From Cenococcum geophilum (Eukaryota), in assembly GCA_050273025.1 (NCBI GenBank), contig CP158635.1, forward strand, positions 2,108,001 to 2,172,000: 64,000 nt of DNA, given 5' to 3'. The notes under the pieces were generated by a model. The model was given only the letters and a program-made list of their open reading frames with translations. It did not search any database and was not told the origin of the DNA. The first letter of the stretch is position 1; each line of letters opens with the position of its first letter. Below are positions 22,310 through 64,000 of this stretch, in pieces. Made by a program: the position numbers and the translations under genes.

Positions 22310-23225
22310 ATGGCCTTTTCAACAACCATCACTTTTCTCTTCGCGCTCCTCCACCTCACTTCTGCCCACTTCACAGTTGAGTATCCCTATTGGCGAGGCT
22401 CGTCCTCCGCTGAAGGTACTTCGCAGTGGATTTTTCCATGTAGGTCTTCCGAAGCTGCTCCTTTCCAATTCCCGCCAACCTCTAGCATTTTTAGTTCAAG
22501 GCGCTAATTACCCTATTCTCCTAGGCGCCAACGTGTCGGAAACCACCAACCGCACTGCGTGGACCACAACAGGTGGCTCGCTCCGACTGCACGTTGGCCA
22601 CCACTGGGCACTGACCTACGTAAACCTTGGGCTCGGGAGCAATGTTACCAACTTCAACATCAGCCTTGTGGACCACTTCAACCAGACTGGGAATGGCACA
22701 TTCTGTCTTAAGGAGACCGGAAAGGCGCGGCTGGCTGCTGGACTTAGCGGAGCTGGGTACGACGCGAAATCAGTTGACGGAGTCGATGCGACGTTGCAGG
22801 TTATTCAGATTAGCACGACAGGGGCAGCATTATATAATGTAAGTGTAATTCCATTGGCTGAATTTTCTAGGCATGCTTTCGGTTCTCTCCGCTTTCTCCC
22901 TTCTTCATATATTCCTTTTCAACTTTCCTTCTTATTTGTCTTTCGAAAGTCCCCGCCATTACTCGATATTCTAACAGCCCAAAAGTGCGCAGATATCACT
23001 TTCAACGCCACTGCTGCTTTACTCGCAGACTCCGAATGCGCCAACTCGACTGATGTAGGCGGAATCGGAATCTTGAACGCGGACCAAGCGGGAAATACGA
23101 CGGCGACCAGCACTGCATCTGCAGGAGCCGCACCAACGAGTACGAGTGCTGCGTCTGCTTTGCAGATGCCCGCTTTAGGGGGAGTGGTTGCGGCGGTAAT
23201 TGGATTTGGTATTGCACTTACTTAA
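22310..23225 (+). CDS. GPI-anchored copper-binding BIM1/X325-like (LPMO-like) protein; introns about 22440-22524 and 22839-22985
   Basis: The signal peptide ends just before a mature N-terminal His (HFTVEYPYWRG). Second His region LHVGHHW, then GNGTFCL and ATLQVIQ...ALYN|CADITF, a Ser/Thr/Ala stalk and a hydrophobic GPI-type tail. Confidence 0.85.
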
Positions 23226-23944
23226 GGAAAGGGATGGAAATCGGAGCGCATAACTTCGTTAAAGGGAAGACCGGTACATAAGAGACGATATGCAAATCCG
23301 TAGGCAGCGTAATGAAATAATATATATTTTTAATCTCGTTCTCATGAATGTACGTGTTGATAAGAATGGTATAGTCTCGAGCTTTGCGCACGGGTCACAT
23401 CCAGGGAGGCTTCTATCACCGAAAACTTATCCTGTGCAACACTCCAACGGAGTTGTCCCTTATCATCGCAATGCCTCCATATCTAGCCTATCACTTTCAA
23501 AGCTTTCAAAGACAGCCCTTGTGAAGTGAGAAATGCATCATTCGCAAGACTATTCCTGCCAATCAGATTCGAAACCCCTTGCCTCCGTTGTCCACCTTGT
23601 CAACATTTTCTTGAAACGTAGCACGTTAGTGCTAGATAGGCCCAAAGCGCCTCACAATTCATTAAGATGCAGTTCGTTGGTTGAGTACAAGTAATACCTT
23701 GTTCCTTTCGGCAATGACCTCTATACTCGGTAATACGTATCATGTTCGGCGTTGACGATTTATTTCCTTACGCCTTTCCGGCCATGATATAAGTTAAAGC
23801 ATCCGCTAGGCCCAGTACTTCGCCAAATTTAAATGTAAATTTCGCCGGAGCATACGAAGATCAGCCATAACAGGTTCCTGGGCCACAGAAACAATGCCGG
23901 ACCAGTTAGCCTGCCAAGGGTCCGATTCTGGTTGAGTATGAGCG

Positions 23945-24815
23945 GGCCATGCGGAGAAGCATCTGCCTGGTGATCGCTTCAACGAGTACGGCTTCACGAT
24001 CCGAACCAAGGCAAAACTGGTGAGAGTTTCCACATGTGGAGCTTCATATGCGAGCAAAAGAGACGGGATCATCGACGGGGGCCTCATCCAAAACGCTGCT
24101 GGTATACAGGAAGTTCAGCGATGAAGGGAAAAAAAAGCACACGCATCCTACTGTGCAACAAAGGCCAGGACATTGACGACTACTACCCGCCGGGCTCGCT
24201 GCAGATAAAGGAGAAAGACGACTCCGTGACGTGGGAGCTCGGCGGCCATATCCACATCAGCAAGCTGCTTCACCCCACCGTGACGACTGCCGCGCGTCCA
24301 GGACCACCGAGATATGGCCGTACGCTGAATTTATAATGGGCACACTATCTCCAAACGCATCATCCAGAGCCGGCATATTCCGGACTGGCTGGGGTACATG
24401 GCGGGCCGCGGCCTGAACTGCATGCAGGTCTTTCAGCGACAACCTCACGCAGTACATCATCGCAGACAAGGGCAAGCGTGCGGGCGGGATGGTCAATGTC
24501 GGGACTGAGCAGATCGGGTTGCATGATCCGACGAGTAGAGTGGTTGAGAAACTAGCGCACTGTGTGGATCCGCAGTCGAATATTCAGCCGTATAAATGGA
24601 GTATCATGATGCAGACGGAGAAAGGCACGTTGGAGGCCGTAACGTATGCGTATGCGTTACTATACTTGGATTTGGCGAGGTGGCGTGCTGATTGCCAGTC
24701 AGTATGTTGCTAATGCGGAAGCAAGATTTACGTATACGGATGTTCCAGTCATCAGGGAAGCGCAGATGGCAAGTGTGGAAAGTATGCGTACGCTTTGCAA
24801 GCAGCCGCTAGATCA
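23945..24815 (+). pseudogene. Degraded, multiply frameshifted gene of unknown family
   Basis: Protein-like segments hop between frames: GHAEKHLPGDRFNEYGF / RILLCNKGQDIDDYYPPGSLQIKEKDDSVTWELGG / FSDNLTQYIIADKGKRAGGMVNVG...DPQSNIQPYKWSIMMQTEKGTLEAVTYAY. The central part looks GC3-rich. Confidence 0.45.
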
Positions 24816-25155
24816 GTAGGTATTTACGCCGATTTAAAGGTGGGTGCTATGTAGATCTAAGGTTAGGAAAGGACGAAGTCCCCCAAAGACCCTGGCTTGG
24901 CTGAAACAATGTAGTGTTTACCCAAGAACCCACGCTCACAAGGATCGATATGAGTTAGAACAGCAAGAAGTATTAGGATGAAGGGCTAACGACTGAGTAG
25001 GCTATGCACTCAAAGAAAAGCAAAGGCAAGAATGAATCATCCAAACGCCATCAGAACCTATTCAACTTTTCCGCCACTCCCATCTCAATTTATCCAGCCC
25101 GATATGCCTAAAAATTTTCGACGTCTAAGAAGGAAATGGGCCTGAATGAGGTTGT

Positions 25156-25730
25156 TTACCGGTTGCAGAGGTAGCTCCCGACATCGTCGTTCCAGCTAGG
25201 GCGACTAGCCAGGTTTGGTTCTCCAGGTGAGACTAAATGGAGTCCTTGGCCAATATTGTAACAGTTGGCGTTTCTGCAAATGATCAGCGTTAGCGCAGAA
25301 ACTTTTGGAGGTGGATCTTCGCCGTGAGTGGACGTACGTGACCAAGGTGCAAATGCAACCATCATCGATGCTGAAGGAAGACACGGAATTGATACTGCGG
25401 ATGATTGTAAGTAAGAAGATAGAGATTGCGAGAGCGACAATGTGGTAGTGTTACTGACTAATCTAGGCCAATCTGTGCCATTGAAACACATTGACCAGCT
25501 GGACCTGTAGTGACCACGCCTTCACCTCCAAAATTGACATCGGTGCTCAATGTAACCTGCCACAACTCCACTTAGTACTATTTACGGTTTGTCAAAGTTT
25601 TTAGCGGTAGACTCACCTGGCATGTATCTTGGGCACTCCCAACGACAATTTTCCTGAAAGAGGAGGCGGGCAACGCATGGCAAATGGCTACAAGCCCCAA
25701 GAAAGCGGCGCCGAGGATTGAACGGTACAT
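25156..25730 (-). CDS. 128-aa small secreted Cys-rich protein, beta/gamma-crystallin-like; exons 25730-25617, 25556-25459, 25394-25338, 25273-25156
   Basis: Three canonical GT-AG introns give an open 128-aa frame: signal peptide MYRSILGAAFLGLVAICHA, STDVNFGG, INSVSSFSIDDGCICTL, and WNDDVGSYLC. Six Cys in the mature part. Confidence 0.8.
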
Positions 25731-27515
25731 TTCAATAGGGTCTAATCGGAGGGTTTTGGTGTACGAATCTGAGCCGTGATCTTGTGAATGGATTTGTTTG
25801 CTAACGTGAATGGGGTCTGAAAATGAATTCCAAAACGGTTATGGAAGGAGAATGGTGGGTAGTCGCCCTCTTTTTATGTCGGCAAGGTGTTCGCCACAGC
25901 AGTGGTCCCTTCTTATACGTTGAGGAAATTGGAATGGAGTTCGATGTCCTTTTGCCGCAAATGGCAAGCATGGTTGCGGTTTCCGCAGGAAGCCACGTCC
26001 TGGAATAATACCTCAGGGTCTCTCAGGCCTCGGATTCAACGACAATGCACATGTGTCAGAGCTGTTTTGTTGGCAGCAGTGAAATTTAGCTAGGTCATGA
26101 TGTTCTAGCCCTACGTTACACAAAAAGACGGTATGCTATGATTTGATATGAGATGCTTCGTGGCTCTTGACCAAGGTACATGACAGACCGTCACCATGAG
26201 GGGCATCGGGAAAGGGCTTGCAAACACTTGTCATGCTCCGTCAAGATCGATTAAGTTGATGGTTGGACAAGGTTGTGAAACATTACAGCGGCGTTGCACC
26301 AACCCCGCATGGTACCGGTACGGCTGCTGGATTAGAACCGTGGATGCAGAAGGTAAGAACATATCTAGGAAAAGTATAATGACAACACGAGCTCTAAACT
26401 GGATATGAAAAAGAAGAACAGTCGGGTTATATTCAGAGATAGAATTCTTCAAAGATGACTTGAGAAACCGAATAATAGGAGTCATGGTTTGTTCAAGCTA
26501 GGGAGGTAGCATCATAGCTGTGTGCAGGTGACTTTAGCTTGCCTCGAGGAGATCTGATGACCGAGCAGTGTTCAACGGTTGGTGATACTGGAATGAAGCT
26601 CTTGAAAATGTTGTGGTAAGTAAATATAGTACCTGCTACAGTGTGTAGCATTTGAAAAGAATTGAAATATAGTCAAAAGGTTGGTTCGTTGTCAGGCGGA
26701 ACAAAGCAGGTCACTTGAAGAAACCCCGAGCCCGGCTACCCAACCATCCTCTGGCAGCACATCGCGAATAGCGGCAGTGAATGCAATATCATGGAGATGT
26801 TGTAGATGTTGTGCTCGAGTATAGACCGGATCACACTGGGTGCTTTCTGGCTCTCTCGCTTCTTGTGGTGAGCTAGACCGAGCAGAGATAAATCTGTGGA
26901 CTTGACCGACAGAGGTCAGAGCAGACAGGCAAGCCTACTCATGTCACGCAAATACTGACGCCGTAACGCTGCGTTCGAGGTTGAGAAGAGATATCCGCAA
27001 GTAGAAAGGCGCACGGACCGGAGCACACATTCTGGAAGGGTCACCGAGCCCTGGTGCTTGGTTTTGGTTAACGTCCCTATTTAGGCATTTCCCTAGATGA
27101 CTCGACGGTTGAAGTTTGTGGGTTTAAGATGTGGACTTGGCCATTATTTTGATCTCCAAAGCTCTCCAAAAGGAGTTTAGGGCTGTATTGAAAGTCTCGG
27201 TTCATGGGACTGTACCACTTACCAAATCCTTATCAGTTGTCACCACCTCAACACTACAAGCTCCATCACATCACCAGCTTCGTGATACAAACACCTAGAA
27301 TGGTGATAATAAGTGAGGATCTACGGTATAGGTTTGGTAGACTGGTTTTTATGTCTTTAAACGAGCCATACATTGAGATAACCTCGCGGCGATAAGCAAG
27401 AAAACATTCCTAACGCTTATCTCCCTTGTACCATCTTCCATCCCAAATATCTTAGATCTAATTCATTCTGCTCTCTCAAGGTTTCTTCTCTTCGCTTTCC
27501 TATTCTAGCGCTGCA

Positions 27516-28856
27516 ATGTCGTCAAATTCATCTAAGATACAACCCCGAATAATCATCCATGGCGGCGCTGGCAATATTTCCCGCGCAAACCTTACACCGG
27601 CAGCCCACGCTGCGTATCGTAAATCCCTCCTCACCGTAACCTCCTCAGCCTCCTCGTTCCTTGACAAACCACAAGCTACTGCTCTCGATGTTGCCACCCA
27701 TGCCGTTTCGCTATTGGAAGACGACCCTCTCTTCAATGCCGGCAAAGGCGCGGTCTTCACGCGCGCTGGGACTAATGAGCTCGAATCCAGCATTATGGTA
27801 TCAAACGGGCCGCGCAAGCGCGGCGTTGGATGTATGCTGCTGACTCATGTAAAAAACCCCATTAAACTGGCACGAGAAATGCTTTTACGAGGAGAGCTTG
27901 GAGACGGAGGAGGTGCTCAAGGACACTGTCAACTTTCTGGGGAATATCTGGAGAGTTTAGCGAAGGAGTGGGGTCTTGAAATGGTCGAGCAGACATACTT
28001 CTTTACGCAGAGGAGGTGGGATGAACACCAGAGAGGGCTGAAAGTTGGGCAGGAACTAGTATCATCGATTGCGCAGTTTCATGATCCCTTCTCAGCCTGG
28101 CCAAATAATTCTAGCGTAACTAAACCTGCATATCGAGGATCAGAGAAAGATCCATCTTGGGATGGAAAGGAATATTTGCCACAGGGAACCGTTGGAGCAG
28201 TAGTGCTTGATAGTTTCGGGACGGTTTGTGTAGCAACATCGACGGGCGGCCTCACGAATAAGTTACCTGGCCGCATCGGGGATACCCCGACACTTGGCGC
28301 CGGATTCTGGGCTGAGGAGTGGTTTGAAGAGATATCACCACCTCAGATGCTCTATCAGCCCATCATTCAGCCGCCTCATCCCTCATCATCAATAGACAAG
28401 CTTTCCCGCGGTAATCTCCCAGGCTTCATAGCCGGCTGCTTTCCTTCAGTTTCTATTGCCTCGTCTTCATCCCACCCCCAAACATCCACAAAGCCGTACT
28501 CAGAGCAGCCAGTTTCAACTCGCCGCCATGCAGTGGCCATGTCCGGCACTGGCAATGGTGATTCATTCCTCCGAGTAAGCGCCGTCCGGACTGCAGCGGC
28601 CATTTCTCGATTCTCTACTCCAAATCTTCCATTAGCAGTTGCTATCTCTCGAGTTGCTGGATCTGGTGGGGAACTCCAAAAGTCAGCAGGAGAGCGCTGG
28701 GGTAATACCGGTGAAGGAGAAGGTGGGATCATCGGTATTGAGCTTGTAGGTTCTGAGAGCACTATCGTAGCAGACTTTAATTGTGGTGGCATGTTCAGAG
28801 CTTGGGTTGACGACGAAGGAAAACAGAGGTGCATGGTGTTTAAAGATGAGTATTGA
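27516..28856 (+). CDS. Type-2 L-asparaginase / isoaspartyl peptidase (Ntn-hydrolase)
   Basis: IIIHGGAGNI, LEDDPLFNAGKGAVFT, autocleavage nucleophile in QG|TVGAV, ATSTGGLTNKLPGRIGDTP, SGTGNGDSF, FNCGGMFRA. Confidence 0.93.
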   Translation: MSSNSSKIQPRIIIHGGAGNISRANLTPAAHAAYRKSLLTVTSSASSFLDKPQATALDVATHAVSLLEDDPLFNAGKGAVFTRAGTNELESSIMVSNGPRKRGVGCMLLTHVKNPIKLAREMLLRGELGDGGGAQGHCQLSGEYLESLAKEWGLEMVEQTYFFTQRRWDEHQRGLKVGQELVSSIAQFHDPFSAWPNNSSVTKPAYRGSEKDPSWDGKEYLPQGTVGAVVLDSFGTVCVATSTGGLTNKLPGRIGDTPTLGAGFWAEEWFEEISPPQMLYQPIIQPPHPSSSIDKLSRGNLPGFIAGCFPSVSIASSSSHPQTSTKPYSEQPVSTRRHAVAMSGTGNGDSFLRVSAVRTAAAISRFSTPNLPLAVAISRVAGSGGELQKSAGERWGNTGEGEGGIIGIELVGSESTIVADFNCGGMFRAWVDDEGKQRCMVFKDEY

Positions 28857-38902: not shown

Positions 38903-41900
38903 TATTACGGACGCTTTAAGTACAATATTACGACTACTTGGAGAAAAGACGGAAGAAGCTAGTTAGTTAATTTAGGTACGGTCTAGGATAGAGCCAATAG
39001 AACTATATAACGAGGAATAGTAACTAAGGTTATATAATATAATCTATATAATCTATATAATCTGTGTAATCTATAACAGAGTAGACAGAGCACACATATA
39101 TTACGTATAAGAAGGATTTTATAGGAGTACGGTTGTGTATTTAAGGACCCTTAGTCCCTACCTAGATAATTCCTTCCTTATAGTAATTCTTAGAATATAA
39201 TTAGAGTTAATCTATTAGGCAACCACTCCACCAGTTATTATTACATTATTAACTTTTATACTTACATTTCCTATACACCTAGCCTAATAACGAGCCCACC
39301 ATAGTTCCTGCTACAAGATTCCGTTACACAATTACTACCTAGTTACGGTATTAATATAAAAAGTCAAATAATATGCCACCAAAAGCAGCCACCACGACGC
39401 CATTAACGGCAGCAACTACTTTAAGGATAGGAGGTAATACTAGTATAGTAGATACTAACTTATAGCAACCTATAACGGTCGGATAACTATAGGAAATAGT
39501 TAACTAGCTAATAGCTAATTATATAGTGTTAAAAAAAAGACTTAATAGGATAGGAGTAGTAAAGATTAAGCTATTATTAATTAAGAGATTTATAGGAGAG
39601 AGGTTAAAGCTTAAAGGATTCCTTACGCAGATACACTTTAAAGTCTTATAAGAGGGAGTAAAGTTACCTACACCCGTGGATCGGATAGCCTACATAGGAC
39701 TATTCTTATTAGGAAAAGCACTTAAGTAGTTTAAATCTTACCTTATAGAGATATAGGCAAATAGAATAACAACTACTAACTAAGACATGCGATTTATATT
39801 CTTAAGCTAGGAAGGATTTACAGAATAACTTACACAGATATTTAGAGACCTAAAAAAAATAACTATAGCGAAAAAAAAACTCCAGAACCTTATATAACGA
39901 ACTTTAGCAATTAAGTATATAATATAGTTCTAGACACTAGCAATATAAGTAAAGTGGAATAATAGGGCGCTTATGGTATAGTATAAATAAGGACTTAAGG
40001 CTAAAGTCTAGGACGTAATTATTCTAATAGAAGATGCGGACACCCTAAGGGAATTAATAGATTAAGCAATTAAGATTAATAATAGGATCTTCTAAAGGGA
40101 ACAGGCTAAAAGAGGCTAGGATAGAGTTCTATAGTTATATAAGGCGTAAAGTACGCAGCGACTAAAGCTAAGTTAGAAAATATAGTATGGCGTAGAGCTA
40201 ATAGACCTAAATAGTACTAAAGAAACCTATAAGAGAGGGAGCAAACTATAAAAACCTAAAGGATAAGGATTAAGTAATTAAAGGTCTAAAAAGCAGAGGC
40301 TAAATTAGGGATCTTAATAGTAGAAGACATTTAGGCGGACTCTATAATAAGAAAAATGGTTTAAAGAGGGAGCTTATATAAATTACGGAAAATAGGGTTA
40401 TTATATTAGAGACTGTAAAAGTGGGCAGAGTTACTATATAGTAAAAGGTATAAGACTAGTAGACGATATATATATATAAAGGGACGATAATATACTACAA
40501 GGAACAAAAGAATATTTAATTAGAAGTTTTGCGTTTTGTTATAATAATATATACCAAATTTATAAGGACACTAAGTATAGCGTAAGCTATTAGCTATAGA
40601 AGCTAGCACCTATAGGATATAGAGGAACTAACAAACTAGTTTATAGATCGGATATTAAGGACAATAAATTTAACATAGGCGAAATATTCTATAATAATAA
40701 GGTAATAAGGGCCGCTTACTAGGAGCAAGTAGACCTTAGAGATATTATACTAAAGGTAGAGGATAATTCCACTATAAAATAGGAAATATTAGTAGGGATC
40801 GAAACCCTACTAGACACAATGTCTATCACTTCGCGAGATATAAAAGAAGTAGGATAGCGAACTACTTTGGCACTTAATAAAGGCAAAAGGCCAAAGACTT
40901 AAGATTCTTAAGACGAGATAAGAGACGACTAAGATTCTTAAGACAAGATAAGGTATACCTAAGGACCCATAATGGACGAAAACCGATAGAGTAGGGTAGT
41001 AGCTTAGTTTAGAAGTATACAAATAAGCTTAGGATAAGAGTTTCCTATAGTATAAGATTCTTAAGACAAGATAAGTAAGATTTAAGACTCTTAAGACGAG
41101 ATAAGAATACTATAAATACCTAGTTGGACTAAGGCGGGAGCTAAGCTTAAGTTAGAAGTAAGCTTAGGATTAAAGAATTTAAGGGACTAAGATTTTAGAG
41201 TACGAATAAGGACACCTATAGGTAAGAGGTAAGAAGCTTCTTTATAGATTAGAGAATCTGTAATATAAACAGTAGTTAGACTAGGAGACAGATATATAGA
41301 CCTAGAAGACTTACTAGGGGAATATAGTGTTTAGCCTAAAGATCGAAAGTTTGATACTAGGATTAAGAAGTAAAATAACTTTAAAAATTAGAGCGTAAGG
41401 CGCAAACTAAAAGAAACTATAGAAGAGTTTAGGTAAAGAATTATTATATAGTAAGAATAGAAACTAGATAAGAGATCTAGCATATTAGGACGTATAAAGG
41501 ATAGAGTACTAGTATAAAGAATTACTAATAGGCTAAGAGTAGGTATACTAAGAGCTAAGTAGCTTACCAAACTAGAAAATAAAGAGGATTTAGGGATTCT
41601 AACTAGGTTTAAAGAATAATATATAAAGGGCTGTTATAATACAGTAATAAGAAGATACTTCCTTACGGACAGACTATATACACTCTAGTAGCTGTACCAA
41701 AAGTGGTATAGGCAAAGGCACAATAATAAGTAAAAAGATTTCTATATATAGTTAGATAAAAAAGTTATTTAGGACTACCTAATTATAGAAAAGGCCATAA
41801 CGCATATTAAAGGAGCCTTAATTATAACGTTAAAGGATCTAGAGGAACGCTTAGAGGACTAAAGAAGCGAGAGGTATATCTTAATACCTATAAATAAAGT

Positions 41901-44900
41901 TATAACGTTTAGATTAGCATAATATAGGTTTAAACTTAGGGATAAAGATAAGCTAAGAGTTAACCTAAAGCACCTAGCATACTATACGTTATTATAGATT
42001 ATATATATAGACGATATATGCGAAATATATAAGAATCCAAAGGAAAAGAATTGGAAATACCCTATAAGGATATACTGGATAATAGACAAGTAATAGTACA
42101 GAAATGCTAAATATATACATAGATGGCATCCAGCAGAGGCCTAAGAGGAAGAAAGTTTAGTACTTTAACTAGGAAGATTCCTTATAGAAGAATGCTTAGA
42201 CGGACAACAGTAGTAGAAATACCTAAAAAATATGTGTCTATAGCATATTAAAGATAAAAAGCAAACTAGGCATTAGCTAAAGAGTAAGCTAAGTGCACTA
42301 GAATTAAGCAGCTAATAGTTAGGAAAAGTAGAGGCCTATAAAACTAGAGGAAGCTAGTAGTAGAGCCTTAGACCCTTAAAGGAATTTAAGGATAATACCT
42401 AAATTTATAAATTAAGTGGTAAGATTAGCAGTTCAAAGCGCTAATAGATAGTAGAGTAACGCGAAACTATATCTTACTAGTAGCAGTTAAGAGAATAGGA
42501 CTACCTTATAGACAAAAGGAGCAACCTTACCTATTAATTACAATTTTAGGAGATCTAATAACCTATAAAGGAGGGATTATTAATCTTAAAACAGGACCTA
42601 TTTAGATAACTATTAAAGGAAAATAAATTAAGATATCTTTTAATATCCTACTATTAGGACGGGACGAGGCAGTACTAGGTATGCCTTAGTTATAGGAATA
42701 TAATCTAAGGATTAATTGGATTATAGGTTAGGTTAATATAAGAGATACTTAACGCTGTAAGATATAATAATAAGCCAAGTTAGTATAGTACTAAGTAGGA
42801 GCAACCTATAAAGAAATAGAAAAAGGACTAAGTTATATACTAAAGAAATACTATAAGTATAGTAAAAAACTATAGTTACCGGAAAGTAAAAAGCTGTTAA
42901 AATATATAGCATAGGACTATAAGATAGAGTTAGAACTAGGAATAAGTCTAAAGTTTTTTCTAATCTATAAGCTTACTAAGAAAGAAGGTAGAGCGTTAAA
43001 AGAATTTATTTAGGAGAATCTATAAAAGGGATATATTAGACCATTATAGTTATTAGCAGGTTATCTAGTACTATTCGTACTAAAAAAAATGGCAAACTAA
43101 GGCTGTATATTAACTATAGGTAGTTAAATAATATTACTAGAAAGGATAAGTATCCTTTACCCTTAATTAGCAAAATCTAAAATAGAATAGATAATGCGTA
43201 AATCTTTATAAAGATAAATCTAAGATAGGCGTACTATTAGATTAGGATTAAGGAAGGCGATAAATAAAAGGCAGCCTTTAGGTTAAAGGAAGGACTATAT
43301 AAACTATTAATTATGTAATTTAGGCTTATAAACGTACTAGTAATATTCTAGAAGTATATTAATAATATATTAGGAGAATACTTAGATAAATTTATTATAG
43401 TATATCTTAATAATATTATTATCTACTTAATAACTAAGGAAGAATACAGGGAATATATTAAATAGGTTTTAAAGAGACTATAAAAGGAATAGATACTAGT
43501 AGTAATTAAAAAATGCAAGTTCTTCATTAAGAAGACTAATTTTATTAGATTTATTATTAAACTAGGCTAACTTAGTATAGATCTAAAGAAGATTAAGGCT
43601 ATAGTGAATTAGTAGGAACTAAAGAACATTATATAGTTAAGATTATTCTTAGGGTTTTATAATTATTATAGAAGGTTTATAGCACAGTAGTTAAAGGATA
43701 TTAAGCTATTTACGCGGTTAATAAAGAAAGAAGAACTATAGGTATAGGGAGAGAAGTAAAAAGAACTCTTTAAAAAAGTTAAAGAGTTATTTACCTAGGA
43801 GCCAGTTCTTAAGATCTATTAACTAAGACTAGAGACGGTTATAGAAATAAACGCATTAAACTATATACTAGGGGCGTACTTTATATAAAGGTATTAAGAT
43901 AAATAGCACCTAGTGGCATACTATAGTTAGAAGATAACACTACTAGAGTTAAACTATAACATTTATAACAAGGAGTTATTAGGTATAGTTATAGCATTAA
44001 AGAAATAGAGAGCATTCTTATAAGGTATAGAAAAACTATTTATAGTTAAGATAGATTATAAAAACCTAATAGGATTTCTAATAATAAAGGAATTTAACTA
44101 AAGATAGGTTAGATGGGCAGAGATACTTACGGAATACTATTTTAAGATTTAGTATATTAAAGGTATAGATAATATGCGGGTAGATGCTTTAAGCCATAAA
44201 GCTAAACTATAAAATAAGGAAAAGCTATTAGGGGCTTTATTACAAAAAGATATAGACGGATTAATTAGGTATAATTATCCGAAAATTATAGTAACTTAGA
44301 AAAATAATAAACTAGAAAAAGTCTATAAGATACCAAAAAGCTTTTAGGTATAAAGAATTCTAGAAGTATAGCTAGAAAATCTATAGGCGGATATATACGA
44401 AAATTGGGAAGTAAAGTATATCCTAAGAAGCATAGCAGAATAGTTTATAGAAGACTTCTATAAGGGATTAATTTAAGGACATAATAGAGCTATAAGCTTA
44501 GTGTTAAGACTTTAGGAGGAGTATATTATTAATAGAATCTAGAGGATAGCCAGAAAAGTTATAAAAGAATATTTAGATTGCTAAAGAAATAAACTAACGA
44601 GGTATAAGCTATATAGAGGGCTACAACCTATTAAAATACTAGAGAGACTATAGGAGGTTATATTATGGAACTTTATTATTAAGTTACTAAAATTAAAAGA
44701 TCCTATTACCGGATAAGATTATAACGCGATCTTAGTAATAGTAGATAAGCTTATAAAGTGGGGATACTTTATAGCATATATAGAAGAAATCTTAGCGGAA
44801 GATATCGCTAAAATCTATGTAAAAGAAGTATTTATAAGATATGGAGTACTAAGTAAGATTATATCGGATAGAGATCTAAGATTTATAGTAGTATTCTAAA

Positions 44901-46875
44901 AAGTGTTCTTAGCGGAGTAAGGAATTTAAGTAGTAACTTTTACCGCATATTATTTATAGATAGATAGCTAAACGGAAAGATTAAATTAGACGCTAGAGTA
45001 GTATTTAAGGCATTATATTAACTATGTATAGAATAATTAGGTATTACTATTACTAGTTATATAATTTATATATAATATAACACCTTAAAAAGGAATAGGC
45101 ATATTACTATTTAAGGTAAATTACGGATATAAGCTAAAAATATTATTATTACTATAATAAGCAAAGAAAATAAGTAGTAGAGCTAAAGAAAGAATAAAGG
45201 ATTTAATAAATTTTTATATAGACCTTATAGAATTAGTAAAGAAAGTATAAGAAAGAATAAAAAAGTACTATAATGCTAAGAGATCTAAGGAACCAGATCT
45301 TAAGGAGGGAGATAAAGTATAGCTACTATATAAAAATTTTAAGAGTTAATAACTAAGTAAGAAATTGGACTATGTTAGACTAAGACCTTTTAAAATTATA
45401 TAGAGGATTTTACTAGTTACGTTTAAGTTAAACCTACTAGCCAAAATAAAGATCTACCCTATATAGCACATTATAATACTAAAGCTAGTATATAGGAATA
45501 TTAAGCCACTAGTTTATAAAGTAGATATATATAGAGGATAGGAAGAAGATAAATAGTAAGTTTTAAAGATTATTAATTATAAGGACACTAATAATGAAAT
45601 ATAGTACGAGGTTAAGTAGATAGGCTATACTAAAACTACCTAGAAGCCACTAAAGAATCTAAAAAACACTATAGGAAAGGTACAGGAGTATTAGAAGAGA
45701 TTAGGTTAGGCAGTATTAATAAAGAAGGATCGCTAAAGAATAAGTTACCTAAGGGGGACCTAAGAAGAGCAGTTGCTAAGCTACTTAGATCTATTTCTTT
45801 CTCTATTAGAGGAGAATCCGTTTTTTTATTACCTAGTTTCTATAGACCTTATTTTATAAGTTTCTACTCCTTAAAATAAACCTTCTTACGCACCTTCTTA
45901 AGACGGATTAGCTAAGCGGACGCCGCTAAATAAGACTCTAGAGCCTGTTACTAAGCATTAGCAGCCTTTTATTTAGCGTCCTAAGATTAGCGCAATTTAG
46001 TAAGAGTAATAGACAGTTTATTATCTAGCTGTGTAGCAGCAGATTAAACATAAGACCTTAAGATAAATTAATTAGGGAACTAGACAACTATTAAGAGTAA
46101 TAGGTTGCGTATATTTAGTATTAAAAGTAAAGCAAACGTTATAGGACGAATAAATATTTACTTTAGTACACTTTAAATAAAAGGACAGTTATTGCGAAGA
46201 TAGGTTCGCCAATATAATATAAACTAACCCCTTTTTTAAATAGCGAGAACACGGAGACGGTATAATCTCACTAAGAGATAATATTATAGTAATAGTGCGA
46301 GCATAACAAGCAGTCGAGGAAGAAGAAATTACTTTAGGTATAATAAGCAATAATATTAACTAAATTAATTAGACGGATATTACACCTCTAGTAAATAACT
46401 TAGAGATATTTTAAATCTTTAAGGACGAAGATAAAGAGGAGGGAGATGGTGTTACGGACGCTTTAAGTATAATATTATAACTACTTAGAGAAGAAACGGA
46501 AGAAGCTAGTTAGTTAATTTAGGTATAGTCTAGGATGGAGCTAATAGAACTATATAACGAGGAATAGTAACTAAGGTTATATAATATAATCTATATAATC
46601 TATATAATCTGTATAATCTATAATAAAGTAGATAGAGCATATGTATATTACGTATAAGAAGGATTTTATAGGAGTATAGTTGTGTATTTAAGGACCCTTA
46701 GTCCCTACCTAGATAATTCCTTCCTTATAGTAATTCTTAGAATACAATTAGAGTTAATCTATTAGGCAACCACTCCACCAGTTGTTATTACGTTGTTGAC
46801 TTTTGTACTTGCATTTCCTATATACCTAGCCTAATAATAAGCCCACCGTAGTTCCTGCTACAAGGTTCCGTTATA
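38903..46875 (+). mobile_element. Full-length Gypsy chromovirus family B, copy B1 (7973 bp), nested in the Copia 5' region
   Basis: 426-bp LTRs at 38903-39328 and 46450-46875. TSD TATTA at 38898-38902 and 46876-46880. gag ATG at 39373, PR-RT-RH-IN-chromodomain order, polypurine tract AAAGAGGAGGGAGATGG. Confidence 0.95.
45706..46341 (-). pseudogene. Antisense intron-containing accessory gene of Gypsy B1 (Zn2Cys6-like spacing + coiled coil), RIPed
   Basis: Reads PCSR(C)LKKGLV(C)IILAN...(C).KCTK.NI.SS(C), where bracketed Cys are TAT/TAC interpreted as RIPed TGT/TGC. Same 636-bp span as the B3 copy. Confidence 0.7.
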
Positions 46876-55085: not shown

Positions 55086-56289
55086 AAAAGAATATATTAT
55101 TAATAGAATCTAGAGCTTAGTAAGAGAAACTATAAAGGAATATTTAGATTGCTAAAGGAATAAACTAAGAAGGCATAAGCTATATAAAGGGCTATAACCT
55201 ATTAAGACACTAAAACGTCTATAGGAGATAATATTATAAGACTTTATTATAAAGTTACTAAAGTTAAAAGATTTTATTACTGGATAGGAATATAACGCGA
55301 TTCTAGTAATAGTAGATAAGTTAATTAAGTAGGGCTGCTTTATAGTATATATAAAAGAAATCTTAGTAGAAGATATAGCTAGAATCTATATTAAAGAAGT
55401 ATTTATAAAATACGGAGCATTAAGTAAGATTATATCGGATAGGGATTTAAGATTTATAGTAGTGTTTTAGAAGGTATTCTTAGCGAAATAAGGGGTTTAC
55501 GCAGTAATATTAATAGTATATTATCTATAGATAGACAAATAAATAGAAAGGTTAAATTAGACGCTAGAATAGTATCTAAGATATTATATTAATTACGTAT
55601 AGAATAATTAGGTATTACTATTACTAGTTATATAGTTTACGTATAACGTAACACTATCAGAAGGTATAAGGATATTACTATTTTAGGCAAATTACAGGTA
55701 TAAGCCTAGAATATTATTATTACTATAATAAGTAAAGAAAATAAGTAGTATAGCTAAAGAAAGAATAAAGACGTTAATAAATCTTTATATAGACCTTATG
55801 GAATTAATAAAGGCAGTATAAAAAAGAATAAAAAATTACTATAATATTAAGAGATCTAAGGGACTAGATCTAAAGGAGGGGGATAAAGTATAGCTATTAT
55901 ATAAAAAATTTATAAGTTAATAACTAAGTAAGAAGCTAGATTATATTAGACTAGGACTATTTAAAATTATAGCTAAGATTTTAAAAGTTACGTATAGACT
56001 TAACTTACTAGTAAGAATAAAAATCTACCCTATATAATATATCGCGATACTAGAGCTAGTATATAAAGATATAAAGCTACTAGTTTATAAAGTAGATATA
56101 TATAGAGAATAAGAGGAAGACAAATAGTAAGTTTTAAAGATTATTAATTATAAGGATATTAATAATAAAATATAGGATAAAGTAAAGTAGATAGGCTATA
56201 ATAAGACTACCTAAGAACTACTATAGAACCTAAGAAATGCTATAGAAAAGGTATAGAAGTATTAAAAGAGAATAGGTTAGGTAATATGA

Positions 56290-57065
56290 AGAAGGAGCTA
56301 AAGATAAAAGAATTAGTTAAAGGTAATAGATAAGTTAGGTTATCTAAGGGATCTACTATTAGTATACTAGTTATTTCCACCCTAACTTAATTAGAATTCT
56401 TTTTAGCCTCCTTAGCCTTAAGCTTAGAGAAACCTTACTTAATAAGATATAACTCTTTAGAGCACACCTTCTTATAAACTTTTACTAGATAAAATAACTA
56501 TATATAAGTATCTAGTTAAGCTTTTAGAGCCTAAGACGCTTTATTAAAATAATGCTAAACCTTAATAAGAGCCTTAACTAGTTTACTTTCTAGTTTTTTA
56601 GCTACTACTAATACATAAAACCCTAAGTGTGAGGCAGTATTGCTAGGGTGTATAGTAGGGAGCAGGAAAGCCGAGCATGAGTTATATAGGGAGTTGATAG
56701 AAGAGGACGATATAGTAATAAGGGTAGGTAATAGCCTAAGTACAGAGACAAACCGATAAGGAGGGAAGGGCCAAAATAACCCTTATATTAAGGCAAATTA
56801 AATAAGGAATAAGACAATTATATAAAATTACAAGACGCGTATATTTAGCGTTAGAGATGGATTAAATATTATAGGACGATTATATATTCGCTTATATATA
56901 TTTAGTATAAGAAGAAGGTTAGTGACTAGATAAAGCCACGATTATAATATATACTAACTTCTTCTCTATATACCAAGAATAGGACGGTATAACTTTACTA
57001 AGTAAAAGAATAAATATTACTAGCTAATTATAACGATTAGACATAGAGGATCTAATAAAAGGCAT
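56290..57065 (-). pseudogene. Antisense accessory gene of Gypsy A (homologue of the B1/B3 gene), RIPed, with a solo LTR at its intron acceptor; 3' end approximate
   Basis: Intact ATG at 57065. De-RIPed MPS(C)SR(C)AEKKLV(C)...RQPSS(C)AE(C)T.AN.RSS(C)DVRSISDAE|W, and exon 2 with KV.KKV.S.E..LI.QG..EL. Confidence 0.65.
56628..56787. mobile_element. 160-bp solo LTR of another family
   Basis: Starts TGTGAGG and ends CCTTATA (RIPed CCTCACA). 5-bp TSD CTAAG / TTAAG at 56623-56627 and 56788-56792. Absent in B1 and B3. Confidence 0.8.
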
Positions 57066-57173: not shown

Positions 57174-57565
57174 TGTTATAGACCTTATATCGGCAGTAAT
57201 ATAACTACTAAAAAGAGATATAAATAGGTTAGTTAAGATAGTATAGGAGGCGCTAAAACCGATTAAGCTATAAATTAAGGGGTAGCCGAGTTATATAGCT
57301 AGTTATGTTATAAGTTTAGAATATAAGAATATAGAAATATAGGAACGCGATATACCAACGTACTAATATACTAATATACTTAGTATATTTCTTAGGCGCA
57401 GTATTATATACTTAAAGGACTATAGTCCCTACCTAGATAGTTTTCTTCTTTATAGTAAATCTTAGAATATAATTAAAGTTAATCTATTAGGTAACTATTC
57501 CACTAATTATATTATTGTTATTAACTATTCTATACCTATATACCCGGCCTATTAATAAGTCTACT
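57174..57565 (+). repeat. 3' LTR of Gypsy A (interrupted near its end by B2)
   Basis: TGTTATAGACC start after the polypurine tract; colinear with about 32916-33275. Confidence 0.85.
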
Positions 57566-58767
57566 TATTACGGACGCTTTAAGTACAATATTATAGCTAC
57601 TTAAAGAAGAGTTGGAAGAAGCTAGTTAGTTAATATAAGTACGGTCTAGAATAGAGCCGATAGAGCTATATAACGAGGAATAGTAACTAAGATTACGTAA
57701 CGTGATCTATGTAATTTATATAATCTATATAATCCGTAATAGAGTAGATAGAGTACACATATATTATATATAAGAAGGATTTTATAGAAGTATAGTTATG
57801 TATTTAAGGACCCTTAATCCCTACCTAGATAGTTCCTTCCTAGTAGTAATTCTAGAATACAATTAGAGTTAATCTATTAGGTAACTACTCCACTAGTTAT
57901 TATTACGTTATTAACTTTAATTTATATTACCTATATACCTAGCCCATTAATAAGCCTACCGTAGTTCCTACTATAAGGTTTTATTATATAATCACTACCT
58001 GGTTATAGTATTAAATATAAAAAGTTAAACAATATGCCACTAAAAGCAGCCACTATAACGCTATTAACGGCGGCAATTATATCGAGATTAGGTAATGACA
58101 CTAGTATAGCAGACACTAACTTATAGCAACCTATAATGGTCGGACAGCTATAAGAAATAGTTGACTAGCTAATAGAAAATAATGCGATATTAGAAAATAG
58201 GATTAATAGGATAGGAGCAGCAAAGATTAAGTTACTATTAATTGAAAGGTACTTAGGGGAAAGATTAAAACTTAAAGGATTCCTTATATAAATGTACTTT
58301 AAGGTTATATAGGAAGGAGTAAAGCTGCTAATACCTATAGATCGAATAGTATATATAGGACTATTCCTATTAAAAAGAGTATTTAAATAGTTTAAGCTTT
58401 ATCTTACGGAGATATAAGCGAATGGAATAATAACTATTAATTAAGAAGTATAATTTATATTTGTAAGTTAGGAAGGGTTTATAGAGCAACTTATATAGAT
58501 ATTTAGAGACCTAAAGGTAACAACTATAGCGGAAAGAAAACTCTAGGATATTACGTAATAAACCTTAGCAATTAAGTATATAACGTAATTCCAGACATTA
58601 GCAATATAAGTTAAGTGGAATAATAGGGCGCTTATAGTATAGTATAAATAAGGGGACTTAAGGCTAAAGTTTAGGATATAATTATCCTAATGGAAGATAC
58701 GGAAACCCTATAGGAGTTAATAGATTAAGCGATTAAGATTAATAATTAGATCTATTAAAGGGAATAG
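57566..58767 (+). mobile_element. Gypsy family B copy B2: 5' LTR (57566-57988) plus start of gag, interrupted by B3
   Basis: LTR colinear with the B1 LTRs; gag ATGCCACTAAAAGCAGCC near 58034. Confidence 0.88.
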
Positions 58768-61700
58768 TGTAACAGAACCTTGTAGCAAGAACTACAATGG
58801 GCTCGTTATTGGGCTAGGTATGTAGGAAATGCAAGTATAAAAGTCAACAACGTACTAATAACTGGTGGAGTGGTTGCCTAATAGATTAACTTTAATTGTA
58901 TTCTAAGAATCACTATAAGAAAGGAACTATCTAGGTAGGGACTAAGGGTCCTTAAATATATAACCGTACTCCTATAAAATCCTTCTTGTATATAATATAC
59001 GTATACTTTATCTAATCTATTATAGATCCTATAGATCACGTAGATTACATAAATTATATTATATAACCTCGGTTACCATTCCTCGTTATATAGTTCTATT
59101 GGCTCTATCTTAGACTATGCCTATATTAACTAACTAGCTTCTTCTATCTCTTCTCTAAGTAGTTATAATATTGTACTTAAAGCGTCCGTAATACTATCTC
59201 CCTCCTCTTTATCTTTATCCTTAAAGATTTAAAATATCTCTAAGTTATTTACTAGAGGTATAATATCCGTCTAATTAATTTAGTTAATATTATTACTTAT
59301 TATACCTAAAGCAATTTCTTTTTCCTTAACTGCTCGTTATGCTCGCACTATTACTGCGATATTATCTCTTAGTAAGATTATACCGTCTCCATATTCTTGT
59401 TATTTAAAAAAGGGGTTAGTTTATATTGTGTTAGTAAACCCATCTTTATAATAACCGTTCTCTTACTTAAAGTGTACTAAAGCGAATATTTGTTTATCCT
59501 ATAACGTTTACTCCACTTCTAATACTAAATATACGCAACCTATTACTCTTAATAGTTGTCTAGTTCCCTAATTGATTTATCTTAGGGTTTTATATTTAAT
59601 CTACTACTACGCGGCTAGATAATAAACTGTCTATTACTCTTACTAAATTGTAATAATCTTAGGACGCTAAATAGGAGGCTGCCGATACTTAGTAGCGAGC
59701 TCTTAAGTCTCGTTTAGCGGCGTCCGCTTAGCTAATCCGTCTTAAAAAGGTGCGTAAGAAGGTTTATTTTAAGGAGTAAAAACTTATAAAATAAGGTTTG
59801 TAGAAACTAGGTAATAAAAAAACGGATTCTCCTCTAATAGAGAAGGAAATAGATCTAAGTAGTTCGGTAACTACTCTTCTTAGGTCCCCCTTAGGTAATT
59901 TATTCTTTAGTAATCCTTTTTTATTAATACTGCCTAACCTAATCTCTTCTAATACTTCTATACCTTTCTTATAGCATTCTTTAAATTCTTTAGTAGCTTT
60001 TAGGTAGTCTTAGTGTAGCCTATCCACTTAACCTTATATTATATTTTGTTGTTAATGTCCTTATAACTAACGATCTTTAAAACTTATTATTTGTCTTTTT
60101 CTTATTCTCTATACGTGTCTGCTTTATAGACTGGTGGCTTAATATTCCTATATACTAGCTCTAGTATTGCGATATACTATATAGGGTAGATTTTTATTTT
60201 AGCTAGTAGGTTTAACTTAAATATAACTAATAAAATCTTTTGCGTAATTTTAAAAGGTCCTAGTCTAACATAGTTTAATTTCTTACTTAGTTATTAACTC
60301 TTAAAATTTTTGTATAGTAGCTATACTTTATCTCCCTCCTTAAGATCTAGTCCCTTAGATCTCTTTGCATTATAGTACTTTTTTATTCTCTCTTATACTT
60401 TCTTTACTAATTTTATAAGGTTTACATAAAGATTTATTAACGTCTTTATTTTTTCTTTAGCTATACTACTCGTTTTCTTTACTTACTATGGTAATAATAA
60501 TGTCCTTAGCTTATATCCGTAATTTACCTTAAATAGTAATATGCCTATTCCTTCTTAAGGTGTTATATTATATATAAACTATATAACTAGTAATAACGAT
60601 ACCTAATTGTTCTATATATAATTAATATAATACCTTAGATACTATTCTAGTATCTAATTTAGTCTTTCTATTTAACCGTCTGTCTATAGATAATATGCGG
60701 TGGAAGTTACTGCTTAAACTCCTTACTCCGCTAAAAATACTTCCTAAAATGCTACTATAAATCTTAGATCTCTATCTAATATAATCTTACTTAGTACTCT
60801 ATGTCTTATAAACACTTCTTTAACGTAAATTCTAGTAATATCTTCCACTAAGATTTCTTCTATATATGCTATAAAGTATCCCCACTTTATAAGCTTATCC
60901 ACTATTACTAAAATCGCGTTATAATCTTGTCCGGTAATAGAATCTTTTAACTTTAGTAACTTAATAATAAAGTCCTATAATATAACCTCCTATAGTCTTT
61001 CTGGTATTTTAATAGGTTATAGCCCTCTATATAGCTTATACCTTATTAGTTTATTCCTTTAGTAATCTAGATATTCCTTTATAACTTTTCTAGCTATACT
61101 CTAAATTCCGTTAATAATGTACTCCTCTTAGAGTCTTAATACTAAGCTTATAGCTCTATTATGTCCTTAAGTTAATCCCTTATAAAAGTCTTCTATAAAC
61201 TACTCTGCTATGCTTTTTAGGATATACCTTACTTTTTAATTTTTATATATATCCGTTTGTGGATCTTCTAGCTATACTTTTAGAATTCTCTATGCCTAAA
61301 AGCTTTTTAGTATCTTGTAGACTTTCTCTAGTTTATTATTTTCTCGAGTTACTGCAATTTTTAGATAATTATACCTAATTAATTCGTCTATATTTTTTTG
61401 TAATAAAGCCCCTAATAGCTTTTCCTTATTTTATAGTTTAGCTTTACGGCTTAGAGCATCTACCTATATATTATCTGTACCTTTAGTATACTAAATCTTA
61501 AAATAATATTCTGTAAGTATCTCTACCTATCTAACCTATCTTTAGTTAAGTTCCTTTATTATTAGGAATCCTATTAGGTTCTTATAATCTATCTTAACTA
61601 TAAATGGTTTCTCTATACCTTATAAAAATGCTCTTTATTCCTTTAATGCTGTAACTATACCTAATAACTCCTTATTATAGATGTTATAGTTTAACTTTAG

Positions 61701-64000
61701 TAGTATTATCTTCCAACTATAGTATGCTACTAGGTACCATCCGTCTTAATGCCTTTATATAAAGTACGCCCCTAATATATAGTCTAATATATCTATTTTT
61801 ATAACTGTCTTTAGTCCTAGTTAATAGATCTTAAGAACTAGCTCCTAGGTAAATAACCTTTTAACTTTCTTAAAGAGTTCCCTTTACTCCTCTCCCTATG
61901 CCTATAGTTCTTCTTTCTTTATTAACCGCGTAAATGGCTTAATGTTTTTTAACTACTGCGCTATAAACCTTCTATAGTAATTGCAAAACCCTAGAAATAA
62001 TCTTAACTATATAACGTTCTCTAGTTGCTACCAATTTACTATAGCCTCGATCTTCTTTAGATCTATACTAAGTTAGCCTAGTTTAATAATAAATCTAACA
62101 AAATTGGTCTTCCTAGTAAAGAACTCGTATTTCTTAATTGCTACTAGCATCTATTCTTCTTATAGTCTCTTTAAGACCTATTTAACATGTTCTCCGTGTT
62201 TTTCCTCTGTTATTAAGTAGATAATAATATTATTAAGATATACTATAATAAATTTATCTAAGTGTTCTCCTAATATATTATTAATACGCTTCTAGAACGT
62301 TACTAGTGCGTTTATAAGCCCAAATTATATAACTAATGGTTTATATAGTCCTTCCTTTAACCTAAAGGCTGCCTTTTATTTATTGCCTTCCTTAATCCTA
62401 ATCTAATAGTACGCCCATCTTAGATTTATCTTTATAAAGATTTACGCATTGCCTATCCTATCTTAGATTTCGCTAATTAAGGGTAAAGGATACCTATCCT
62501 TCCTAGTAATGCTATTTAACTGTCTATAGTTAATATACAGCCTTAGTTTACCATTTTTCTTTAGTATAAATAGTACTAGATAACCTACTAATAACTGCAA
62601 TAGTCTAATATATCCCTTTTATAGATTTTCCTAGATAAACTCTTTTAACGCTCTACCTTCTTCTTTAATAAGCTTATAGATTAGAAAGAACCTTAGACTT
62701 ATTTCTGGTTTTAACTCTATTTTATAGTCCTATACTATATATTCTAACAGCTTTTTACTTTCCGGTAACTATAGTTTTTTACTATACTTATAGTATCTCT
62801 TTAGTACATAACTTAGTCCCTTTTCTATTTCTTCGTAGGTTGCTCCTACTTAGTACTATACTAACTTAGCTTATTATTACATTTTACGGCGTTAAGTATC
62901 TCTAATATTAACCTAACCTGTAATCTAATCGATCCTTAAATTATATTCCTATAACTAAGGTATGCCTAATACTGCCTTATCCCGTCCTAATAGTAGGATA
63001 TTAAAAGACATCTTAATTTATCTCCCTTTAATAGTTATCTAAATAGGTCCTGTTTTAAGATTAATAATCCCTCCTCTATAGGTTATTAGATCTCCTAAAA
63101 TTGTAACTAATAGGTAAGGTTGCTCCTTTTATTTATAAAGTAGTCCTATTCTCTTAACTGCTGCTAGTAAGATATAGTTTTATATTACTCCACTATCTAT
63201 TAGCGCTTTAAACTGCTAATCTTACCAATTAATTCGTAAATTTAGGTGTCGTCCTTAAATTCCTTTAAGGGTTTAAGGCTCTACTACTGGCTTCCTCTGG
63301 TTTTATAGGCCTCTACTTTTCCTAACTGTTAGCTGCTTAATCCTAGTATACTTAGCTTATTCTTTAGCTAATACCTAATTCGCTTTTTATCTTTAATATA
63401 CTATAAACACGTATTTTCTGGGCATTTTTACTACTATTGTCTATCTAAGCATTCTTCCATAAGGAATCTTCCTGGTTAAAGTACTAAACTTCCTTCTTCT
63501 TAGACCTCTGCTAGATGCCATCTATATATATATTTAGTATTCCTATACTATTACTCGTCCGTTATCCAGTATATCCTTATAGGGTATTTCCGATTTTTTT
63601 CCTTTAGATTCTTATGTATATCGTATATATCGTCCACGCACGCAATCTATAATAATGTATAGTGTGCTAGGTACTTTAGGTTAACTCTTAGCTCGTCTTT
63701 ATTTCCAAGTTTAAACCTTTATTATGCTAATCTAAACGTTATAACTTTATTTATAGGTACTAAGATGCGTCTCTTGCTTCTCTAGTCCTCTAAACGTTCC
63801 TTTAGATCCTTTGCTGTTATAATTAAGGCTCCTTTAATATGCGTTATAGCCTTTTCTATAATCGGGTAGTCCTAAATAACTTTTTTATCTAACTATATAT
63901 AGAAATCTTCCCACTTATTATTGTGCCTCTGCCTATACTACTTTTGGTATAGCTGCTAGAGTATATACGGCTTATCCGTAAGGAAGTATCTTCTTATTAC
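58768..64000 (-). mobile_element. Gypsy family B copy B3, inverted: 3' LTR 58768-59193, pol and the end of gag, continuing beyond the window
   Basis: 426-bp reverse-complement LTR, reverse-complement polypurine tract CTATCTCCCTCCTC, and reverse-complement colinearity with B1 at about 41650-46875. Confidence 0.93.
59302..59937 (+). pseudogene. Antisense accessory gene of Gypsy B3 (exons 59302-59530 and 59586-59937), RIPed
   Basis: 76 codons + T, a 55-bp intron (ATACGC as RIPed GTACGC ... CTAAT ... TAG), then GG (Trp) and a coiled-coil exon including SRLAASA.LIRL.KVRKKV. Confidence 0.7.

Follow-up and report, generated by a model that had tools for sequence, protein, structure and literature searches.

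A conserved, spliced gene antisense to gag-pol in decayed Ty3/gypsy chromovirus copies of Cenococcum geophilum

The window analyzed here is a stretch of 64,000 nt from Cenococcum geophilum (contig CP158635.1 of assembly GCA_050273025.1, forward strand, 2,108,001-2,172,000). From ~32 kb onward, it consists of an AT-rich block (27-32% G+C) of nested Ty3/gypsy copies. These are chromoviruses by their organization, with pol domains, including a C-terminal chromodomain, in one frame and LTRs (long terminal repeats) on the flanks. In all three of the window copies that retain the region adjoining the 3' LTR (B1, B2, and B3), we found a two-exon gene lying antisense to gag-pol, which we refer to as the accessory gene. 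The elements and the parts of the gene are as follows.

38905-46873, plus strand: B1 element, ~7.97 kb, with LTR copies at 38905-39326 and 46450-46873
58770-64000, minus strand: B3 element, a near twin of B1, cut by the window end
58770-59193, minus strand: 3' LTR of B3, its inner edge 108 nt from the accessory gene start
~59197-59222: polypurine tract of B3
59940-64000, minus strand: pol remnant of B3, from reverse transcriptase to chromodomain, assigned by homology with B1 and running past the window end
59302-59530, plus strand: B3 exon 1, start codon changed from ATG to ATA; it holds the first base of a split Trp codon
59392-59502, plus strand: B3 six-Cys motif, C-x2-C-x6-C-x13-C-x2-C-x8-C, in which repeat-induced point mutation (RIP) has turned Cys into Tyr, giving Y,Y,Y,Y,C,Y
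59531-59585, plus strand: B3 intron, 55 nt, ATACGC...TCTTAG, with the donor changed from GT to AT and the acceptor TAG
59586-59974, plus strand: B3 exon 2, encoding a long helix, a conserved basic stretch, and a C-terminal tail; stop codon TAG at 59972-59974
46113-46341, minus strand: B1 exon 1, start ATA; its six-Cys motif at 46141-46251 reads C,Y,Y,Y,C,Y
46058-46112, minus strand: B1 intron, 55 nt, ATACGC...TCTTAA
45669-46057, minus strand: B1 exon 2, stop codon TAG at 45671-45669
56843-57065, minus strand: B2 exon 1, ATG kept at 57065-57063; the motif at 56871-56981 is all Tyr, with its spacing unchanged
56623-56842, minus strand: B2 intron, 220 nt if the homologous CTTAG/GG acceptor is used
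56240-56622, minus strand: B2 exon 2, stop codon TAG at 56242-56240

A preliminary description of this DNA had begun the gene at 59302 (+) in B3 and at 46341 (-) in B1 and had given it a 55-bp intron. Both positions are indeed those of the start codon, which is ATA in either copy, and the intron lies at 59531-59585 and 46112-46058, respectively. The end proposed for the B3 gene, 59937, fell short: the coding sequence stops at the TAG 37 nt further on (45671-45669 in B1), and the 3' end of B3 exon 2 lies over the end of pol that codes, on the opposite strand, for the chromodomain. The gene had also been placed between the chromodomain and the polypurine tract. It does adjoin the chromodomain end of pol, but the pol frame of intact relatives continues across the region. 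The start of the gene lies 108 nt in from the edge of the 3' LTR both in the window and in three related loci found outside it (L002, L003, and L008), and the inner LTR edge reads TATTACGG in B3 and TGTTACGG in B1 and the same three loci. B2, a third and divergent chromovirus copy carrying the gene, was absent from the preliminary description.

The copies in the window are heavily mutated. Indels are absent from the 3792 bp compared between B1 and B3, where transitions number 397 and transversions 14, and the estimated mutation rate per copy is 0.63 at TpG and 0.57 at CpA, which is the signature of RIP. The pol frame of B1 (38900+3k) was nevertheless matched by RVT_1, RT_RNaseH, and SH3_Tf2-1 (integrase SH3) in one frame. 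The decay of the accessory gene is evident from the loss of the start codon in two of the three copies, from the AT donor (ATACGC) in all three, and from the Tyr codons now standing at most Cys positions. As reported before, Cys1 survives as TGT in B1 (TAT in B3) and Cys5 as TGT in both copies; Cys2, Cys3, Cys4, and Cys6 are TAT or TAC. The raw frames are interrupted by 13 (B3), 11 (B1), and 11 (B2) internal stops, all of them TAA or TAG. All three window copies are dead; the block in which these relics lie has been mutated by RIP.

A gene recovered from such DNA might be an artefact of reversing RIP, because, wherever RIP has left the sequence AT-rich, TAA or TAG can stand for Gln or Trp, and Tyr for Cys. 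The 11 to 13 stops per window copy fit this explanation, as does the result of a Pfam search with the window copies (X at stops), which gave zero matches. After B1 and B3 were merged, the stops in the known pol frame were as numerous as those in the accessory frame. We therefore dropped the two-copy merge as a test for a gene, since two copies are too few to clear the stops even in pol. The 636-bp indel-free frame described previously does exist, but it carries no signal, because the whole 3792 bp compared are free of indels between B1 and B3. Thus, with stops remaining after the merge in pol as well, the window alone could not prove the gene; outside relatives did. Against an artefact also stands the distribution of the motif. 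The relaxed pattern [CY]x2[CY]x6[CY]x5-13[CY]x2[CY]x5-9[CY], run over the six frames of 32001-64000, gave four matches in these 32 kb, three of which are the homologous sites (B3 59392, B1 46251, and B2 56981), while the fourth, at 45238, is junk with six stops. In the gene region, all eight indels that separate B2 from B1 and B3 are multiples of three.

The relatives were found at the level of both proteins and loci. A profile of the exon-2 translation (stops as X), searched against 1.84 billion proteins, matched 37 proteins at E<=1e-3, of which 8 reached E<=1e-10 and the best 1.8e-21; among longer proteins (269-2000 amino acids), the profile search gave none at E<=0.01, which is weak evidence only. 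Word-index searches returned 19 relatives from the database protein P0019 and 16 from P0039, all of them from JGI or ENA and either unnamed or "hypothetical". P0039 and P0057 are natural, barely mutated proteins, and the protein reconstructed in the preliminary description is close to both, as well as to the products of L002 and L003. B3 exon 1 is homologous to exon 1 of L002 and L003 and to P0039 and P0060.

A scan of metagenome contigs with a 12-sequence alignment as the query located 75 related loci. The C terminus of pol lies on the opposite strand and within 150 nt of the gene end in 72 of them, usually with an alignment overlap of 50 nt. The Cys pattern together with the family signature recurs in 74 of the 75 loci (80 copies, 10 of which have all six Cys), and only two unrelated matches turned up. 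As the pattern search demanded Cys or Tyr, the presence of only these two residues is by construction, and it is the recurrence that counts. Cys occupies all six positions in P0039, L001, L002, L003, and L008, so that the residues inferred earlier from Tyr codons are Cys where RIP has not acted; in P0039, the spacing is exactly C-x2-C-x6-C-x13-C-x2-C-x8-C. In L002 and L003 (47-48% G+C), the gene is complete, at 209 and 197 codons, respectively; it starts with ATG, ends with TAG, and is split by a 55-nt intron whose donor is GTACGC or GTGCGC. Neither copy has an internal stop or a frameshift, and the donor is GT in the unmutated relatives, whereas the preliminary description had named a non-GT donor as speaking against the gene. 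Next to these genes, RVT_1, RT_RNaseH, Integrase_H2C2, rve, SH3_Tf2-1, and Chromo were matched above or near their cut-offs in L003 and L002, with Chromo, rve, and RVT_1 over the Pfam cut-off in both. With unmutated relatives that show a complete frame, six Cys, GT..AG borders, and the same junction, and with a profile match at E 1.8e-21, we rejected over-reading of RIP: the relatives, the locus pattern, and the selection described below rule out an artefact, to which we assign a negligible probability.

Intact relatives encode a protein of ~200-210 residues, composed of a short N-terminal arm, the six-Cys module, a single long helix with an almost invariant basic stretch, and a conserved C-terminal tail. 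A second Met is found three to four residues ahead of Cys1 in all 19 family proteins (residue 31 of L002 exon 1; ATA at 59383-59385 of the window). The database protein P0019 begins at this Met, which could be an alternative start giving a shorter protein.

The intron is supported by spliced forms. Six proteins (P0002, P0016, P0039, P0057, P0061, and P0063) cross the predicted junction E/W uninterrupted; many other database proteins continue into the intron and end there. Among the 80 related copies, the donor is GT in 25 and AT in 55, the 55-nt intron ends with AG in 73, and GG comes next in 75. We also compared public sequencing runs with 58770-60300 of the window. One contig of the metatranscriptome run X19 joins 59530 to 59595 via nine letters, which correspond to 59586-59594 with three RIP-type differences, and thus exactly the 55-nt intron 59531-59585 has been removed. 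X19 holds unspliced contigs too, and the DNA run X1 showed no such joint among the matches listed. Like the unmutated relatives, both X1 and X19 carry C at 59398 and G at 59402 and 59410; the change at 59402 (A>G) turns TAT into TGT, and thus Tyr into Cys, at Cys2. The spliced P0057 extends ~30 nt past the conserved edge of the LTR, a reach consistent with antisense transcription that starts within the 3' LTR, as the preliminary description had suggested.

In B2, the first 55 nt of the intron are homologous to the B1 and B3 intron and are followed by a 165-nt insertion. The insertion (56623-56787, minus strand) sits exactly at the 3' end of the intron and ends in a second copy of the CTTAG/GG acceptor; B2 would thus have either a 220-nt intron or 55 extra in-frame codons. 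Its AT content is lower than that of the flanking sequence, and the frame there is open over 75 codons. The 3' LTR of B2 itself is apparently divergent (region 57174-57986), as 57423-57559 is only 79% like the B1 LTR. A second LTR copy (57568-57980, 86%) stands directly after this divergent stretch, and the sequence that comes after it (58014-58435) also follows the LTR at 38905 (39353-39774). On sequence comparison, this arrangement suggests nested or rearranged elements.

Purifying selection acts on the accessory gene, in its own frame. When L002 is compared with L003, exon 1 has 8/3/27 differences at the first, second, and third codon positions of the accessory frame, and exon 2 has 14/15/39. 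The ratio of nonsynonymous to synonymous substitution rates (dN/dS) for this pair is 0.062 in exon 1 and 0.227 in exon 2 of the accessory gene, as compared to 0.082 in pol proper, and all six exon-1 pairs among four unmutated copies fall between 0.06 and 0.22. The gene as a whole, at 0.06-0.23, is therefore not near 1, the value that the preliminary description had named as speaking against it.

Because the gene overlaps pol, we weighed whether the sense strand is the coding one, with a long C-terminal tail of pol and an antisense frame that is merely its mirror image. The pol frame does stay open for 300 (L002) and 281 (L003) residues beyond the chromodomain, the Chromo match ending at residue 942 of 1242 and 1140 of 1421, respectively. 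This extension passes through all of the antisense gene and then the polypurine tract before it ends 39 codons into the LTR, and the homologous frame in B1 and B3 terminates at the same place. It occupies the following positions.

L002, 3784-4718: pol tail
L003, 29-906: pol tail
45677-46600 of the window, plus strand: homologous frame of B1, with its twin in B3

When the accessory codons were redrawn synonymously 2000 times, the pol frame held 4.7 stops on average and was free of them in only 0.45% of the trials. Something thus seems, from these simulated sequences, to keep the pol frame free of stops across the antisense gene. Other results argue against the sense-strand explanation. The excess of third-position differences tracks the antisense frame in exon 1 and exon 2 alike; over exon 2, the same differences fall as 14/39/15 in the pol frame, that is, on second positions. 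The dN/dS of the pol frame is 0.20 over exon 1 and 0.73 over exon 2, so that the tail is near neutral there. This contrast in third positions and dN/dS indicates that the antisense gene is the constrained one. In addition, spliced antisense forms exist, and the pol tail has no Pfam domain, no look-alike in the Atlas, and a low recognition value. We consider it very improbable that the antisense frame is only a mirror image. If both products are made, the pol frame and the antisense gene would share the same DNA in an unusually long sense/antisense overlap.

The same overlap with the 3' end of pol would suit an active antisense transcript, which could pair with the 3' end of the genomic RNA as double-stranded RNA or feed small-RNA silencing, the protein being secondary. 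Antisense transcription has been discussed as a regulator acting through double-stranded RNA (PMC7264820), and Botrytis Gypsy elements are described as sources of small RNAs (PMC8365987). However, the selection acts on amino acids (dN/dS 0.06-0.23), and both the six Cys and the reading frame are preserved across the splice. A role of the transcript itself thus appears quite improbable.

We next consider the nature of the protein. The Cys1-Cys6 loops are x2, x6, x13, x2, and x8. The spacing of Zn(II)2Cys6 clusters is C-x2-C-x6-C-x(5-12)-C-x2-C-x(6-8)-C, so that the middle loop is one residue over this range. On sequence comparison, the module is a six-Cys module of Zn(II)2Cys6-like spacing, at least as close to DUF3716. 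The AlphaFold2 model of P0039 contains one long helix (residues 77-151, pLDDT >95; pLDDT, predicted local distance difference test). A dimer formed through a coiled coil, as the preliminary description had suggested, is plausible. A fold search with the whole P0039 model returned long-helix matches only (Z<=7.5) and is uninformative on the Cys module. Similarity scores from the Atlas, 0.78-0.84, are leads only, the one to DUF3716 being weak (0.78).

Together, these data show that the gene exists, is conserved and spliced, and is dead in the window. The explanation we favor, at a probability of about 80%, is that the window holds RIP-killed copies of a Ty3/gypsy chromovirus that carries a third, antisense, spliced, and conserved gene, whose product we infer to be a regulator made by the element. 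In this model, the accessory gene would be transcribed antisense from a start within the 3' LTR. Its intron could outlast retrotransposition, as the strand of the genomic RNA would have no intron to splice. The product would be a zinc-binding, probably dimeric, nuclear factor that binds nucleic acid, and it might act on the DNA or chromatin of the element itself, in the element's own regulation; the anti-silencing and targeting roles proposed in the preliminary description would be candidates as well. That the accessory protein is specifically a DNA-binding regulator is possible, and we put it at somewhat less than even odds.

Several results weigh against the regulator model. The best match to Zn_clus (PF00172) reached 17 bits against a cut-off of 21 (E 6.3e-3) and covered only profile positions 18-37 of 39, weak matches at E<=10 being found in 9 of 19 family members. 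DUF3716 (PF12511) aligned to L002 over profile positions 4-59 of 59 at 18.6 bits against a cut-off of 22 (E 1.7e-3); 5 of the 19 members match it, and the best of them, which is not L002, also stays below the cut-off (E 6e-4). As these matches are sub-threshold, we did not file the module under Zn(II)2Cys6, and its earlier assignment to this class is not supported. The Cys module was modeled by AlphaFold2 at a pLDDT of ~50-68, with a mean of 55.7 when folded alone. A comparison of the profile with solved structures gave four weak rows of C2H2 type (best E 0.02) with no stretch significant alone, and we discarded them as noise. Heptad periodicity of the helix, as compared to shuffles, is clear in only one of four proteins (p 0.0015, 0.06, 0.15, and 0.25).

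The genetic and transcript evidence has its own weak points. Stop-free copies number 2 of the 57 delimited by script (L002 and L003), the other 23 of the 80 not having been evaluated. The dN/dS values are based on four unmutated copies, possibly from shared hosts, and overlapping frames distort such estimates. The RNA run X19 may contain DNA. In the stranded RNA-seq run X21, the depth is ~9-fold over 59862-60017 and falls by ~60070, with all first mates on the minus strand, yet the reads are <90% alike and mostly partial fits, which makes them a hint at most.

The resemblance of the module to host-type Cys domains, although sub-threshold, would also be expected of a passenger, that is, a captured piece of a host gene of DUF3716 or zinc-cluster type that hitch-hikes without a role in the element or serves the host. 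Capture has been discussed as a possible origin of the antisense genes of plant elements (PMC7264820). However, position, orientation, intron, and spacing are constant across B1 and B3, B2, L002 and L003, and L001 and L008, and dN/dS is low; a useless gene should decay under error-prone reverse transcription. A passenger is thus improbable, and we retain the explanation of a gene that belongs to the element.

A more far-reaching version of the regulator model would make the 3' end of these elements dual-coding over ~650 nt. It would encode both a spliced antisense, zinc-binding, dimeric, DNA-binding regulator and a pol tail of ~280-300 residues reaching into the LTR, with both under selection, and the Cys module would be DUF3716, a recurrent DNA-binding module of both classes of fungal transposons. 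We regard this full combination as unlikely.

For the window itself, the finding is ordinary, as all three copies are dead. The family, in contrast, offers a handle for study, with a small protein, six invariant Cys, a long helix, and selection as strong as on pol. Its conserved intron marks its own transcript, and naturally intact copies are present in environmental fungi. Whether such elements encode a DNA-binding regulator of their own can thus be tested directly.

The remainder of the window is gene-bearing DNA of 41-50% G+C, interrupted by one AT-rich stretch at ~6-8 kb. This small stretch (6001-8000, 27% G+C) showed no similarity by blastn either to the Gypsy copies or to other window sequence. 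Ordinary eukaryotic and fungal genes are found across 9475-28856, as listed below; a 538-codon open stretch at 20149-21765 (plus strand) had no Pfam match.

9475-14779, minus strand: Med13, two large open stretches
16187-18214, plus strand: NOL10
22272-23225, plus strand: BIM1-like copper acquisition factor
27462-28856, plus strand: Asparaginase_2 protein

Among known systems, the layout of the accessory gene recalls the antisense gene of human T-cell leukemia virus (HTLV). The HTLV antisense product, HBZ, is translated from a spliced message and contains a leucine zipper. The promoter of the HTLV gene lies inside the 3' LTR (PMC7264820), and the accessory gene would share with it the antisense start in the 3' LTR, along with a message that is spliced and a product that is small and has a long helix. 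These shared features suggest a regulator encoded by the element. However, HTLV is a human retrovirus, and its antisense gene has no sequence relation to the accessory gene and no Cys module; the analogy is one of layout only.

The protein resembles Gal4-type Zn(II)2Cys6 factors in its six N-terminal Cys, which are similarly spaced and precede a linker and a long helix. It differs from them in matching the second half of the profile only, in its 13-residue middle loop, and in a Cys2-Cys3 stretch that is not basic in the sequences seen. The similarity to DUF3716 extends from the whole module to the whole profile in L002, and the association of this domain with transposons is known. DUF3716 is described in REP9-1 and REP9-2, two genes that a class II transposon carries in Zymoseptoria tritici (PMC8232023), and in a protein called orthologous to the TTAGGG-binding NCU05718 of Neurospora (PMC10776026, PMC4650311). 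By analogy, this link may hint that the module binds DNA, through a thin chain of inference.

Closer in position are the antisense open reading frames (ORFs) that plant elements carry between pol and the 3' LTR, such as Grande gene23 and those of RIRE2, Retand, and PvRetro13 (PMC7264820). The accessory gene shares with them its position, its orientation, and its presence in most copies of the family. As summarized in the same article, some of the plant products localize to the nucleus, Grande has its own promoter upstream of the ORF, and the function is unknown, in plant LTR retrotransposons and in the fungal element Boty alike. The plant elements belong to other Gypsy lineages; we found no sequence similarity of their ORFs to the accessory gene, and the passages drawn on describe no six-Cys module for them.

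The closest counterpart is brtn, the antisense gene of Boty-like chromoviruses, described by Zhao et al. (2011, Virology 417:248; cited in PMC8365987, PMC7264820, PMC4227169, and PMC5987419). The preliminary description had known of no standard account of such a gene in fungal chromoviruses, a statement that brtn corrects. None of the relatives found in our searches is named BRTN or comes from NCBI, the supplements of PMC8365987 do not mention brtn, and we found no paper on a zinc-cluster-type antisense gene in fungal LTR elements (subscription papers lay outside the search). We therefore set the accessory gene beside brtn by layout and description, as these citing articles give them, and not by sequence. 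In both cases, a fungal Gypsy element with a chromodomain carries an extra antisense gene between pol and the 3' LTR. A Monilinia transcript is reported to have matched a truncated Pol with a chromodomain plus BRTN, which fits the tail-to-tail layout seen here. The accessory gene likewise has the position, strand, presence in most copies, and pol-like conservation of an antisense aORF of the brtn type. Thus, antisense extra genes are a kind already known from Boty brtn and from plant elements, while the description of the Cys module and the open pol frame may be the new parts.

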